In this document: one piece after another, positions 22,771-27,971 of the stretch | Numbering within the stretch: position 1 is the first letter of the stretch | Layout of the letters: each line of letters opens with the position of its first letter | DNA from: Pseudomonadota bacterium | GTDB lineage: Bacteria; Pseudomonadota; Gammaproteobacteria; CALCKW01 | Length of the DNA: 64,000 nt | Direction of reading: 5' to 3' | Assembly (NCBI GenBank): GCA_039196715.1 | Contig: JBCCUP010000015.1 | Coordinates: forward strand, 4,292 to 68,291 | Notes under the pieces: generated by a model | Databases searched by the model: none | Told to the model about the DNA's origin: nothing | What the model saw: the letters and a program-made list of their open reading frames with translations, nothing else | Program-made: the position numbers and the translations under genes

Positions 22771-23289
22771 TCACTTGCGCTTGGGCGCGAGCATCATGAC
22801 CATCTGCCGCCCCTCGAGGAGCGGCTTCTGTTCAACGGTGGAGATCTCGTCGAGATCCTGCTCCACACGCTGCAACAGTTGGAGCCCCAGCTCCCGGTGC
22901 GCCATCTCGCGCCCGCGGAACCGCAGCGTGACTTTCGCCTTGTCACCGTTTTCGATGAACTCGGTCAGCTTGCGCAGCTTGACCTGGTAATCGGCGTCCT
23001 CGGTACCGGGCCGGAACTTGATCTCCTTGACCTGCTGCTGCTTCTGCTTCTTCTTGCCAGCGTTCTGCTTCTTGGACTGCTCAAACCGGTACCGCCCGAA
23101 GTCCATGATCCGGCACACCGGCGGGTCGGACTGGGGGGCGATCTCGACGAGGTCGAGACTGGCCTCTTCGGCGGCGGACAAGGCGTCGCGTATGGACATG
23201 ATGCCGGCTTGTTCGCCATCGGCGGTGATCAGTCGAACGGTTTGTACGGTGATTTCACCGTTGTGCCGCAGTCGGTTTTTTGCAGCTAT
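22771..23289 (-). CDS. infC: translation initiation factor IF-3
   Basis: ...[32 protein letters not shown]...[22 protein letters not shown]...[13 protein letters not shown]. Alignment to E. coli IF3 puts the start at an ATA (or nearby non-AUG) codon around 23289, 5 nt after the thrS stop. Confidence 0.8.
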
Positions 23290-23293
23290 TGCG

Positions 23294-25219
23294 CTATCCC
23301 TCTTCAGTTGTTCGGCCGCGGTTGGCGACCTCGGTGCCGAGCCGCTCGGCAAAGGCATCGATCGACATCGTGCCCAGGTCCTCGCCGTCTCGGGTGCGCA
23401 CCGCACAGGAGCCGGCGTCCATCTCCCGGTCGCCGACAACGAGCAGATACGGCACACGTTGCAAAGTGTAATTGCGTATCTTAAATCCGATCTTCTCGTT
23501 CCTCAAGTCCGCCGAGACCCGAAAGCCCTTGTCCTGCAAGGCTTTGGCGGTGTTTTCAGCGTACTCGCCCTGCGCGTCTGTGATGTTCAGCACCACCGCC
23601 TGCTCGGGGGCCAGCCAGGCCGGGAAGCGCCCGGCGTGGTGCTCGATCAGGATGCCGATGAAGCGCTCGAAGGAACCGATGGTTGCGCGGTGGAGAAGTA
23701 CGGGCACATCGCGTTCGCCCGCCTCGTTGACATATTGAGACCCAAGTCGACCCGGCATGTTGAAATCGACCTGCAAGGTGCCGCACTGCCAGACGCGGCC
23801 GATGGTGTCCTTGAGCGAAAACTCGATCTTCGGCCCGTAGAAGGCGCCCTCGCCCGGCAGCTCCTCCCAGTCGATGCCCTTGGCGTCGAGCGCCTCGGCC
23901 AGGGCCTTCTCGGCGCGGTCCCAGGTCTCGTCCGAGCCGACGCGTTTCTCCGGCCGCGTTGACAGCTTGTAGATGATGTCGTCGAAGCCGAAGTCAGCAT
24001 AAATGCGGTGTAAAAAGTCGATGAATGCGAGGCTCTCACTGAGAATCTGCTCCTCAGTGCAGAAAATGTGGCCGTCATCCTGGACAAAGCCGCGCACCCG
24101 CATGATGCCGTGCAGAGCGCCGGACAACTCGTTGCGATGACAAAGACCAAACTCGGTAAAACGCAGCGGCAGGTCTCTGTAGCTACGCAGGCCCTGGTTG
24201 AAGACCTGCACGTGGCCCGGACAGTTCATCGGTTTCACCGCGTAATCGCGGTCCTCCGACTGCGTCGTGAACATGTTCTCCGCGTATTTTTCCCAGTGCC
24301 CGGACTTCTCCCACAGGGAGCGGTCAATAATCTGCGGCGTTCGGATCTCCAGGTAGCCGTGGTCGCTCTGCTGCTGACGCATGTACTGCTCGACTTGCTG
24401 CCAGAGTGTCCAGCCGTTCGGGTGCCAGAACACCATACCCGGCGCCTCTTCCTGCAGGTGAAACAGGTTTTGCTGTTTCGCGATTTTGCGGTGGTCGCGC
24501 TTCTCGGCTTCTTCGAGCTGGTGCAGGTAGGCCTTCAGGGCCTTTTTGTCCGCCCAGGCGGTGCCGTACACGCGCTGGAGCATGGCGTTGTTGCTGTCAC
24601 CGCGCCAGTAAGCGCCGGCAACGCTCATCAGCTTGAACGCCTTGATGAACCCGGTGTTCGGCACATGCGGACCGCGGCAGAGGTCGACAAACTCTGCCTG
24701 CGTGTAGAGGCTGAGGTCCTCGTTGGAGGGAATCGAGTCGACGATCTCGGCCTTGTACGCCTCGCCCTTGTCGGTGAAAAACGCCACGGCGTCGTCCCGA
24801 CCGATCAGCGAGCGCTCGATCGGGATCTGCTGCTTGGCGAGCTCGGCCATGCGCGCCTCGATCTTGCCGAGGTCGTCCTCGGTCAACGGTTCGACCGTGG
24901 CGAAGTCGTAGTAGAAGCCGTTTTCGATCACCGGCCCGATGGTGACCTGCGTTCCGGGGTAGAGCTGTTGCACCGCCTGCGCCATCAGGTGCGCGCAGGA
25001 GTGGCGTATCACCTCGACGCCCTCGTCGTCCTTGGCGGTGACGATGGCGAGCTGCGCATCCTCGGCGATCACGTGGTGGGTGTCGACCAGGGTGCCATCG
25101 ACCTTGCCGACCACCGCGGCCTTGGCAAGCCCCGGCCCTATGTTTGCTGCCACCTCGTGCACTGACACGGGCGCATCGAACTCTCGCTGACTGCCGTCAG
25201 GCAGCGTGATTACCGGCAT
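23294..25219 (-). CDS. thrS: threonine--tRNA ligase
   Basis: [28 protein letters not shown] (TGS domain), then a class II core and anticodon-binding domain. Start ATG at 25219. Confidence 0.9.
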
Positions 25220-25432
25220 GGTCGCTACTCGTCTGAAAGGCCGCAAGCGCAGCCGAGAAAACCCACTATCTTAGCAAGTTGGGGCCCATTGATGCGGACA
25301 AAAGCGAATATTGTGGCGCGAACCCGGCACGCCACCGCGTTGTGCTGCACTGCGGTGTGCATGGCACTCGCCGGTTGCGACAGTGGCAGCAGCCGCACAC
25401 CGGCATTGCCCTGACAGGGCAGCGCGGCCGCG

Positions 25433-26021
25433 ATGCACGCCACTGCACCGCGGCTCCCGCTGTGGATCACCGACGCGGCCCTGCGCAGCCTCGACGGCGC
25501 CATCGAAGGCTGCACCACACTCAGCATCAACCCCGGCAACCCGAGCGTGGAGAACCGCCCGGCGGTTGGTTTTCGGTCGCCTCGCTGCAGCGCTTCGCCA
25601 GCGTCGACGCGCTCTGTGGCCGCGACAGCACCGTCACAGCGCAGTACACCCGGTTGGTCGACACCGCCACGGTGACCACGGCTGGCGCCATGCCACCCGT
25701 CGGCCTGCCGCTGCCGAGTCCGGCGTCGGGGACGGGCCCGCTGACCCACACCCCACTCGGCAGCCATCTCACCGTCCCGGTCGCCCAGGTACAGTCCACG
25801 CTGCCGTTCGACAGCGCCGAGTGCGATCCCGAGGTCATCGACGATTCGCTGCCCACCCCGCCGCACGTCTACCTCAACACCGTCGGTGGCGTGGCCGGGC
25901 TGACCGGCACCCTGAGCTGGGCCAGCCCACCGACCGACGTGCCCTGGGCCAGACCCGACCGGCTTGCGGCCACACCACGCCAGCCAGATACTGGCGCGCA
26001 CGCAGCCGAGGGGGCCCGACC
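25433..26021 (+). pseudogene. unknown N-terminal coding region read through two apparent -1 frame changes into the WYL regulator gene
   Basis: GC3 is >90% in frame A (25433-25575), then frame B (about 25578-25920), then frame C (from about 25920, continuous with the YafY CDS). Frame changes occur at a TTTT run (25571-25574) and near GGGCC/CCC (about 25915-25930). There is no independent canonical start for the downstream regulator. Confidence 0.3.
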
Positions 26022-26975
26022 ATCAAACGTTTCGACCGCGTCAACGCCATCCTGGTGTTGTTGCAAGGCCGCCGCCAGGTGCGCGCCGCCGACCTGGCCG
26101 AACGCTTCGGGGTCAGCGAGCGCTCGATCTACCGGGACATTCGCGCGCTCGAAGCCGCGGGCATTCCGATCCTGGGCGAGCCCGGCGTCGGCTACCGGCT
26201 CGACCGCAGCTACCGCCTGCCGCCGGTCAATGTCCAGAGCGACGAGGCCCTCGCGCTCGCGATTGCCGCGAAGTTCGCGGCCACACGCCTCGGTGGCCGG
26301 GTGGCGGAGGACGCGACGCGGGCCATGGACAAGGTGCTGACGGCGCTGGCGCCGGTGGAGCGGCGACGGCTGACGGACTTCATCGACACCGTCGCCCTGC
26401 CGGACGGCAACACGCCGACCCCGAGCGGCCAGGGCGACGGCTGGCTTGGCCTGCTGCAACACGCGCTGACCGAGCGCCGCGTCGTCGAGCTCGACTACTG
26501 CCCGCCGACGCGACCGGCATCGCGTCGGGCTGTCGAGCCGATTGGCGTGTGCCACTACAGCCAGCACTGGCACCTGATTGCCTGGTGTCGCCGTCGCGCG
26601 GCCTACCGCGACTTCCGCCTCGACCGCATTCGCGAGGCCCACCTGCAGGCCGAGCACGTGCCGGCCGATCGGCGCACCGGCATCGAAGACTACCTCGCCA
26701 CACTCGGTTCGACCGAGGCACTCACACCGATCACCGTGGTGTTCGACACCCGCATGGCACACGTCGTTGGGGCCGAGCGCTACCGACACGGGTTCATCGA
26801 CGCCGAGACGCACGACGACGGCGTTCACATGCGGTTCATGTGCGCGCACACCGAGTACCTGTGCCGCTGGCTGCTGCAGTACACGACTGGCGTGCAGCGC
26901 ATTGACGGCGGCGACGCGCCCGCGCAGTGGCACACACTGGTTCGGGCGTTGTCAGACCACGCCACCGCGCGCTGA
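26022..26975 (+). CDS. YafY-family transcriptional regulator (N-terminal HTH + WYL domain)
   Basis: IKRFDRVNAILVLLQGRRQVRAADLAERFGVSERSIYRDIRALEAAGIPI is a DeoR-type HTH. A WYL-like domain and C-terminal extension follow. The codon at the expected start is ATC, so there is no canonical start, and the frame stays open upstream. Confidence 0.6.
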   Translation: MKRFDRVNAILVLLQGRRQVRAADLAERFGVSERSIYRDIRALEAAGIPILGEPGVGYRLDRSYRLPPVNVQSDEALALAIAAKFAATRLGGRVAEDATRAMDKVLTALAPVERRRLTDFIDTVALPDGNTPTPSGQGDGWLGLLQHALTERRVVELDYCPPTRPASRRAVEPIGVCHYSQHWHLIAWCRRRAAYRDFRLDRIREAHLQAEHVPADRRTGIEDYLATLGSTEALTPITVVFDTRMAHVVGAERYRHGFIDAETHDDGVHMRFMCAHTEYLCRWLLQYTTGVQRIDGGDAPAQWHTLVRALSDHATAR

Positions 26976-27971
26976 GCCGGGCTGCCCCGCGCGCCAGGCA
27001 CTCGGGGTGGTGCCGGTGACGCGCTTGAACTCGCGGTTGAAACTCGACTTGGTGTTGAACCCACTCTCGAAGATCACGTCGGTGACCGCCCGCTCGGGCG
27101 CCGCCAACAGCGCCTGTGCATGCTCGATGCGCAAGCGATTGATCCACTGCGAGACGTTCATGCCCTCGACCGCGTTGACCGCGGCCGAGACCCGCTTGGT
27201 CGGCACACCCACCTTGCGCGCGAGCCGTTGCAGGTTGAGGTCCGGGTCGAGGTACAAGGTGTGTGCCCGAACGCCCGCATCCACGGTGGCGAAGTCGGCA
27301 GTGCGCCGGGCGGCACCGTCGCCCGAGTCGTCCACCGCACCCTCCCCCGCGGGCTCGCCGGGGGGCACACTGCGCCAGAGCAGCACGGCGACACCGACCA
27401 CCGTAAGCGCCTGCACCACGCCCATGATACGGCCGAGGTTGGCACCGCCGGTGCGACCGAAATCGATCGCGATCGCGATATCCGCACCACAGGAACTCAC
27501 CAGCGCCACCACGACCACCCAGAGCGCAAGGCGGCTCGAGGCCATGTCGCCAAGCCGCGCCCAGGGCATCGCCTGCTCACCACGCAAACCGAAGCGCGCC
27601 AACAGCGCCGCGTAGACCAGAAAGGTCAGCGGCACGATCAGGTCGATGGCCGGTGGGAACGCAACCAGCGCGAGGGCCACCGCCCCAACCGGCACGGCGT
27701 GCGGCCACGCACCGCGGCCGAAGGCCGGCCGCACGAAGCTCGCGTAGGCCAACGGTGGCAACAACACCGCCGTGACCGGCAGCAACGCACCGAGCAGGTC
27801 GAGTGCGTAGCCGTGACGCAGGCCAAGGAGGATCGATTGCAGCGCCGCCAGAGCGAAGAAGCCCTCGGCATAGCTGATCGAGACCGCCCCTCGCGGGCGG
27901 TTCGCCCGCAGCGCGAGCAACAGCGTCAGCAACACCGCAGCAGTCAAAAAAGGAAAGGGAATCAGCAACAT
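26952..27971 (-). CDS. AraC-family transcriptional regulator with N-terminal 6-TM membrane domain
   Basis: 339 aa. The N-terminal about 200 aa are hydrophobic helices (MLLIPFPFLTAAVLLTLLL...). The C-terminus has the AraC HTH (SQWINRLRIEHAQALL...IFESGFNTKSSFNREFKRVTGTTPS). ATG at 27971 verified. Confidence 0.7.
   Translation of the reverse strand: MLLIPFPFLTAAVLLTLLLALRANRPRGAVSISYAEGFFALAALQSILLGLRHGYALDLLGALLPVTAVLLPPLAYASFVRPAFGRGAWPHAVPVGAVALALVAFPPAIDLIVPLTFLVYAALLARFGLRGEQAMPWARLGDMASSRLALWVVVVALVSSCGADIAIAIDFGRTGGANLGRIMGVVQALTVVGVAVLLWRSVPPGEPAGEGAVDDSGDGAARRTADFATVDAGVRAHTLYLDPDLNLQRLARKVGVPTKRVSAAVNAVEGMNVSQWINRLRIEHAQALLAAPERAVTDVIFESGFNTKSSFNREFKRVTGTTPSAWRAGQPGSARGGVV

Follow-up and report, generated by a model that had tools for sequence, protein, structure and literature searches.

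How is a transcription regulator translated when the codon at its family's start position is ATC, and what is the coding sequence that lies directly upstream of it? Both questions are raised by one locus in the window, the 64,000-nucleotide (nt) stretch of contig JBCCUP010000015.1 from a Pseudomonadota bacterium analysed here. A preliminary description of this DNA had noted that a regulator of the YafY family, with a WYL domain, lacks a canonical start where the family has one. This is correct: the codon in that place is ATC (26022-26024), and the window reads ATC AAA CGT TTC GAC CGC (I-K-R-F-D-R) from 26022. The same description had the regulator frame remaining open upstream, and it does, up to a stop at 25290. 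The evidence suggests that the regulator is probably translated from the ATC by near-cognate initiation. As read from its sequence, the region is made up of two independent genes, a dead lipoprotein gene and an intact WYL regulator. It is otherwise ordinary: it holds neither a 510-amino-acid (aa) fusion nor a new domain, and nothing ties it to defence systems. The features that carry the argument are the following.

26022-26975, plus strand: YafY-family winged helix-turn-helix (wHTH)-WYL transcription regulator with a putative WCX domain, intact, 317 codons and a TGA stop
26022-26024, plus strand: ATC, putative start codon of the regulator, invariant in seven loci and followed by an invariant AAA
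25948-26021, plus strand: intergenic spacer and 5′ leader of the regulator (74 nt), holding GATACTGG and the Shine-Dalgarno (SD)-like GAGGGGG
25292-25947, plus strand: lipoprotein pseudogene, ortholog of an intact gene of 212-215 aa, with a signal peptide and the lipobox MALAGC

The regulator and its start codon

The comparison covers seven loci of one clade, namely the window, L001, L002, L003 and L084-L086, which represent four or five lineages. They were reached through the closest homologs of the regulator, and L003 is a contig of a Granulosicoccaceae metagenome-assembled genome. Identity of the regulator to that of the window is 93% in L001, 69% in L002, 67% in L003 and about 66% in L084-L086, while the regulators of L084-L086 are about 90% identical to that of L003. 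A scan of genome contigs for further members of the clade returned only the L003 contig again and an unrelated Microbacterium locus. The outgroup came from a scan of metagenome contigs, which gave 78 loci, none above 45% identity; 71 of these were used to read the aligned start codon.

Read from the ATC, the regulator matches the Pfam families HTH_11 at residues 6-59 (61.7 bits; cut-off 25) and WYL at residues 142-207 (73.2 bits; cut-off 21.8), and the PADLOC WYL model matches it from residue 3 (E 1e-53). Since these profiles begin at residues 6 and 3, the ATC corresponds to the N-terminus of the family. The Pfam WCX match (20.5 bits) falls under its cut-off of 23.9. The AlphaFold2 model (predicted local distance difference test score 82) places helix α1 at residues 3-16, α2 at 22-29, α3 at 33-45 and the wing at 50-60. 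Foldseek returns full-length matches to DriD, PafBC, BrxR and CapW with E values from 1e-13 to 1e-7, and the alignments to DriD, BrxR and CapW cover about 300-340 columns, the C-terminal part included. Sequence searches also match PafB/PafC and CapW.

Distant relatives indicate where proteins of this family begin. Of the 71 outgroup loci (at most 45% identity), 67 have ATG at the codon aligned to the ATC and the other 4 have GTG, and nearly all of 120 database homologs start with M/V-N/K-R-x-D/E-R. The start position of the family is thus fixed, and this clade alone has swapped to ATC. Within the clade the swap is uniform, as ATC AAA CGN TTY GAS CGC heads the regulator ORF in seven of seven loci.

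Conservation of the codon type begins exactly at the ATC, and none is seen as protein directly upstream of it. Over codons 1-12, the proportion of synonymous differences (pS) is 0.33-0.71 and that of nonsynonymous differences (pN) 0-0.07; the changes fall in third positions and are synonymous or nearly all so, with variants such as CGT/CGA/CGG, TTC/TTT, GCC/GCG, ATC/ATT, CTG/CTA/CTC/TTG and GTG/GTC. The residues preceding the ATC vary by lineage (RSRGGPT, TRPRGPA, NRSQGAA, ERRDGH and GRDSQ). Even between the window and L001, with 93% protein identity, there is a 1-nt indel in a G-run 8-14 nt 5′ of the ATC (GAGGGGG versus GAGGGG), so that the GTG annotated by NCBI in L001 falls outside the regulator frame of the window. 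In L003, L085 and L086, an in-frame stop lies 35-52 codons 5′ of the ATC, with no ATG, GTG or TTG in between.

Downstream, canonical codons are first met at codons 11-14, where the window, L001, L002 and L003 carry GTG, TTG or ATG. At these positions L084-L086 read CTG GTC CTG CTG, and a canonical start appears in them first at codon 66, after the whole helix-turn-helix (HTH). Helix α1 is modelled at residues 3-16 and would be truncated by initiation at codon 12 or 13. All loci have AAA as the second codon of the regulator, yet just 30% of the Lys codons in the window are AAA. In second position, AAA is favourable to initiation.

The regulator itself is intact and under purifying selection. 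Its ORF has exactly 317 uninterrupted codons without indels in all seven loci. Between lineages, the synonymous divergence (dS) is about 1.0 and the ratio of nonsynonymous to synonymous divergence (dN/dS) is 0.09-0.26, from which it follows that these regulators are not pseudogenes. Codons 1-65, which encode the HTH, are the most constrained section (pN/pS 0.06-0.16).

Several observations weigh against initiation at the ATC. Taken alone, the window permits an upstream start, as 244 open codons precede the ATC in the regulator frame, back to the stop at 25290, the nearest in-frame candidates being a GTG at -67 codons and a CTG at -26; it also has GTG and TTG at codons 12-14. L001 has an in-frame GTG 9 codons 5′ of the ATC, the one chosen by the NCBI annotation (P0001, 326 aa), and a CTG 19 codons 5′ of the ATC is common to L003 and L084-L086. 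The SD of L002 is weak (-3.9 kcal/mol) and its upstream DNA ends at a contig edge, and the comparison loci are all metagenome assemblies. The upstream codons would be put to use if each lineage had its own start, the GTG at -9 in L001, the CTG at -19 in L003 and L084-L086 and one further upstream in the window, with the ATC an internal Ile codon. Such an arrangement is improbable, however. The 19 codons in question differ between L003 and L085 alike at all three positions, and only about 37% of their residues are shared, compared with 91% gene-wide. The 1-nt indel puts both the GTG and a TTG of L001 out of frame in the window, whose nearest canonical start lies 67 codons up, within the lipoprotein gene, where its frame is one of low G+C content at third codon positions (GC3). 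Moreover, the SD-like tract directly precedes the ATC and not the candidate codons.

Initiation at GTG 26055, TTG 26058 or TTG 26061, as called for L003 (307 aa), would instead leave the ATC in the leader. Codon 13 is TTG in the window, L001 and L003 and ATG in L002, and TTG is a minority Leu codon in the window genome (222 TTG versus 700 CTG). A start there is nevertheless quite improbable, given that L084-L086 lack any canonical start until codon 66, that codons 1-12 evolve as coding sequence, that the family profile begins at the ATC, and that 9-10 of the 14 residues of the modelled helix α1 would be dropped. The missing canonical start and the decay of the adjoining lipoprotein gene in the window genome could also be read as signs of a start-loss pseudogene, in which ATG became ATC and the protein is no longer made. 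This is highly improbable, as the 317 codons are uninterrupted and free of indels in every one of the seven loci, and as a dN/dS of 0.09-0.26 at a dS of about 1.0, with the HTH most constrained, is a pattern that cannot persist without translation. Translation from the ATC is the account best matched by these observations.

Leader of the regulator and mode of initiation

An SD-like GAGGGGG lies at 26008-26014, 7 nt before the ATC of the window. Its duplex with the anti-SD has an energy of -10.9 kcal/mol, which is beyond the 1st percentile of a background of 22-mers from the window (median -3.0, 5th percentile -7.2 kcal/mol); the values for L001, L003 and L085 are -7.0 to -7.2 kcal/mol, and L002 is the weak case given above. 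In four of five lineages the SD-like tract ends 2-8 nt before the ATC.

The leader also holds the octamer GATACTGG (25987-25994 in the window), which stands 28-32 nt 5′ of the ATC in the window, L001, L003 and L084-L086, that is, in every lineage with upstream DNA. It is found at about 137-144 in L001, at 9933-9940 in L003 and at about 5718-5725 in L085. The octamer may be a -10 box or an operator of the regulator. A sigma-70 promoter scan of 25150-26150 gave nothing at threshold; TTGCGG-17-GATACT, present in the window and L001, matches 7 of 12 positions, and the assignment of GATACT as a -10 element is a guess. L003 and L085 have TGTACTG 23 nt further 5′ of GATACTGG, where the window and L001 have TTGCGG 17 nt 5′ of GATACT instead. 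A repeat search in four loci found no inverted-repeat operator conserved across lineages upstream of the regulator, and an Rfam scan of 25100-26150 gave a chance-level match only, with no known leader or riboswitch.

These features are consistent with the following sequence of events. The ancestor of the clade would have swapped the ATG start of the family for ATC, which all sampled descendants kept. Initiation at the ATC would most likely proceed through near-cognate pairing with the initiator tRNA, probably assisted by the G-rich SD-like tract, 5-8 nt 5′ of the ATC, and by the AAA second codon. Full-length regulator would then be made at a low rate, and its initiation would probably be sensitive to discrimination by IF3. 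Two other modes were considered and rejected. Termination-reinitiation from an upstream small ORF was dismissed because no conserved ORF ends near the ATC in the loci read, and a leaderless mRNA was rejected on general knowledge; leaderless initiation needs a 5′ AUG.

The lipoprotein gene upstream of the regulator

The coding sequence reported upstream of the regulator in two other frames is confirmed. The window has a G+C content of 65.5%, and real genes there have a GC3 of about 0.85-0.95. On the plus strand, with frames numbered by coordinate modulo 3 (frame 2 has coordinate mod 3 = 2) and GC3 taken in 90-nt windows, frame 2 has values of 0.72-0.93 over 25290-25560, frame 1 has 0.87-0.93 over 25560-25960, and frame 0 has 0.8-0.97 from about 25965 on. 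The frame switches in the GC3 signal between 25290 and 26975 are real. The first coding frame exists as described, though it starts at 25292 and not at 25433, and it includes a signal peptide and an in-frame TGA (25412-25414).

Translation of frame 2 from the ATG at 25292 gives MRTKANIVARTRHATALCCTAVCMALAGCDSGSS, a signal peptide of the lipoprotein type carrying a lipobox, which matches P0121 (...LLAGCDSGSS). The lipobox pattern L-[AS]-[GA]-C is present by direct reading in the window (...CMALAGC), in P0121 (...TLLAGC) and in L003 (...ALLASC). Intact orthologs of this gene are found in L003 and L084-L086 as single uninterrupted ORFs, of 215 aa in L003 and 212 aa in P0121. Their TGA stops lie 117-145 nt before the ATC of the regulator (145 nt in L003, 117 nt in L085). 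In a tblastn search, the L003 lipoprotein aligned to the window in frame 1 over 25579-25944 (38% identity, E 9e-24), ending at the last residue of the ortholog. When the frame-2 and frame-1 pieces of the window are joined and the TGA is taken as a sense codon, the repaired product of 218 aa aligns with P0121 in one piece from the lipobox to the C-terminus (residues 22-210 against 14-204, 37% identity, E 3e-26). Three lesions separate the window copy from its orthologs.

25412-25414, plus strand: lesion 1, an in-frame TGA 12 codons past the lipobox cysteine
25540-25570, plus strand: lesion 2, a frameshift from frame 2 to frame 1 resembling a 1-nt deletion, marked by the GC3 switch and by the alignment ...ENRPA|GWFSVAS... 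across the shift
25945-25947, plus strand: lesion 3, stop loss from TGA to TGG, where L001 and L003 have TGA (DNA alignment and tblastn end point)

Judging from these lesions (one nonsense, one frameshift and one stop loss), the lipoprotein gene is dead in the window genome. Both the homology and the high GC3 of frame 2 carry on beyond the TGA at 25412-25414. Recoding of this TGA was considered and rejected, as TGA terminates the regulator of the window and the lipoprotein gene of L001 and L003. The preliminary description had placed the first frameshift at a TTTT run at 25571-25574. The frameshift is real, while the T-run spans 25570-25573 and the shift can be placed only within about 25540-25570. 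A scan for terminators found the quasi-palindrome AACCGCCCGGCGGTT (25553-25567), followed by GGTTTT with the TTTT at 25570-25573, where the pseudogene changes frame. One such terminator-like quasi-palindrome was found, with 0.3 expected. Together with the T-run, it may be a hotspot for indels or simply a product of chance.

This context bears on whether the lesions are instead errors of sequencing or assembly in a gene that the actual genome keeps intact. The frameshift adjoins the quasi-palindrome and the T4 run, which are typical sites of error, and unlike the two substitutions it could be an assembly error, a point that weighs against decay of the gene. Nonetheless, two of the three lesions are substitutions in non-repetitive sequence, which consensus assemblies rarely get wrong, and this argues for a real pseudogene. 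The other genes scanned in the window appear as long ORFs of high GC3 without interruptions. An error-ridden but living gene is therefore doubtful, with a modest chance of being correct.

The same region had suggested a single gene of about 510 aa broken by two frameshifts, in which HTH-WYL would be fused to an N-terminal domain of unknown kind; it would be either a degraded pseudogene of an N-terminally extended regulator or an intact gene with two assembly indels. Frames 0 and 1 do abut without stops over 25900-26060, and the coding potential is almost unbroken between 25292 and 26975. Yet such a fusion can hardly be right. The orthologous loci beyond thrS, whose inspection had been proposed, hold an unrelated separate gene in this place, an outcome named beforehand as one that would speak against a single gene: L003 and L084-L086 carry the lipoprotein gene of 212-215 aa as its own ORF, with its own stop and a spacer of 117-145 nt. 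In syntenic loci the upstream sequence is a separate intact gene; it does not extend the N-terminus of the regulator. On a cytoplasmic DNA-binding protein, a lipoprotein signal peptide and lipobox would make no sense, and no such extension occurs in about 190 regulator homologs examined. The second frameshift, thought to lie near 25920, is a gene boundary; it coincides with the stop codon of the ortholog, and the ancestral stop at 25945-25947 (now TGG) is followed by the 74-nt spacer and the next gene. The degradation that had been noticed is present, then, but in the separate lipoprotein gene, while the regulator is intact with a dN/dS of 0.09-0.26. Frame 1 is open to 26340, and seemingly merges with the regulator, because the stop at 25945-25947 was lost; it is this dead frame running into the regulator gene that gives the impression of a fusion. 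Two spurious open frames, 25311-26975 (554 codons) and 25279-26340 (353 codons), cross the region because G+C content is high and a stop codon was lost, and are not genes.

The lipoprotein family is very small and lineage-restricted. An exhaustive HMMER search of the frame-1 segment against 1.84 billion cluster representatives returned one real relative, P0121. The repaired lipoprotein had no match in an index of 5.8 billion proteins, and no Pfam or NCBIfam model matched the family.

The wider neighbourhood includes two genes on the opposite strand.

23294-25219, minus strand: thrS (threonyl-tRNA synthetase), a 641-aa ORF starting MPVITLPDG, divergent neighbour and synteny anchor
26952-27959 (start approximate), minus strand: AraC-family regulator (HTH_18), convergent, with a 24-nt overlap with the 3′ end of the WYL regulator

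The thrS product of the window is 90% identical, without gaps, to those of L003 and L085, and the thrS-infC-rpmI-rplT-pheST block recurs in both loci. Synteny in L003 and L084-L086 is as in the window, with pheST-rplT-rpmI-infC-thrS on one strand and, in divergent orientation, a small ORF and then the WYL gene. The tail-to-tail overlap between the AraC-family gene and the WYL regulator is also seen in L001-L003 (12-24 nt), and L085 and L086 have an additional 360-aa gene without a Pfam match between the two. In the window infC (ORF 22771-23457, minus strand), IF3 most likely starts at ATA 23289 (ATA GCT GCA AAA AAC, I-A-A-K-N), with AAGAGGGA upstream; gene callers give a truncated IF3 of 158 aa in L003, L084 and L085. 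It had further been hinted that the regulator might belong to a defence or stress island, as WYL regulators often do. No phage-defence system adjoins it in the window or the syntenic loci; its neighbours there are thrS-infC-rpmI-rplT-pheS, the lipoprotein gene, the AraC-family regulator, an alpha/beta hydrolase and an aldo-keto reductase.

Annotation, significance and comparison with known systems

With its probable ATC start, this regulator is a clear annotation pitfall, in which automatic gene finders get the start wrong. Public calls give one ortholog group three different N-termini: P0001 (326 aa; L001, 146-1126), P0003 (307 aa; L003, 10001-10924) and P0004 (252 aa; L084, 3856-4614). None of them matches the conserved frame of 317 codons from the ATC. 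P0001 has a spurious extension, P0003 has a truncated helix 1 and P0004 has no HTH at all; a survey of domain architectures would misclassify P0004 as a protein with WYL only.

To our knowledge, starts besides AUG, GUG and UUG with experimental support are few in bacteria, comprising infC, pcnB, Deinococcus dnaA and a handful more. If the ATC start is true, it would add a transcription factor to these rare cases, with the ATC kept by lineages that diverged deeply (dS about 1). For WYL transcription regulators, no published non-canonical start was found. The ATC could moreover be a selected regulatory device that ties the level of the regulator to start-codon discrimination by IF3, as for the AUU/AUA of infC, although this is unlikely. 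If it were so, conditions that shift the ratio of IF3 to ribosomes or the fidelity of initiation, for example cold shock, stress in ribosome assembly and shifts in growth rate, would change the abundance of the regulator and its regulon, and its conserved place beside the thrS-infC operon would be more than coincidence.

The decay of the lipoprotein gene is that of ordinary bacterial pseudogenes, which likewise mix nonsense mutation, frameshift and stop loss while orthologs stay intact. The sole twist here is the lost stop, by which the dead frame runs 390 nt into a live regulator gene. Programmed -1 frameshifting, as in dnaX and the transposases of insertion sequences, shares with this region that both frame changes are -1 and that a T-run lies near the first. 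It was rejected, however, as the orthologs are in one frame, an X XXY YYZ heptamer is absent and the second apparent shift is a gene boundary.

Initiation at near-cognate codons is uncommon, yet documented for a few genes. In Escherichia coli and many other bacteria, infC starts at AUU or AUA and pcnB at AUU. Like these AUH-start genes and Deinococcus dnaA, the regulator has a near-cognate codon at the position where its homologs have ATG, and this codon is conserved among relatives; in all of them the protein is conserved from that codon on, and annotated N-termini differ among pipelines. For Deinococcus dnaA, N-terminal proteomics validated an ATC start, in an argument that also rested on the contrast between conserved and heterogeneous N-termini (PMC2830850). 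The ATC start of the regulator is proposed from sequence comparison, in contrast to the proteomic proof for dnaA. Initiation at AUC in E. coli reporters reaches 1-2% of the AUG level and yields a product with N-terminal Met (10.1101/063800). The regulator differs from infC in having no known autoregulatory logic such as that of IF3 acting on its own AUU start.

Among WYL proteins, the regulator probably shares the three-domain architecture of PafBC, DriD, BrxR and CapW by Pfam (WCX being sub-threshold) and by its predicted fold, while being only 14-22% identical to the solved wHTH-WYL-WCX members. Unlike regulators of the BrxR/CapW type, it resides in a conserved housekeeping neighbourhood next to thrS and not beside a defence system or a DNA-damage regulon.

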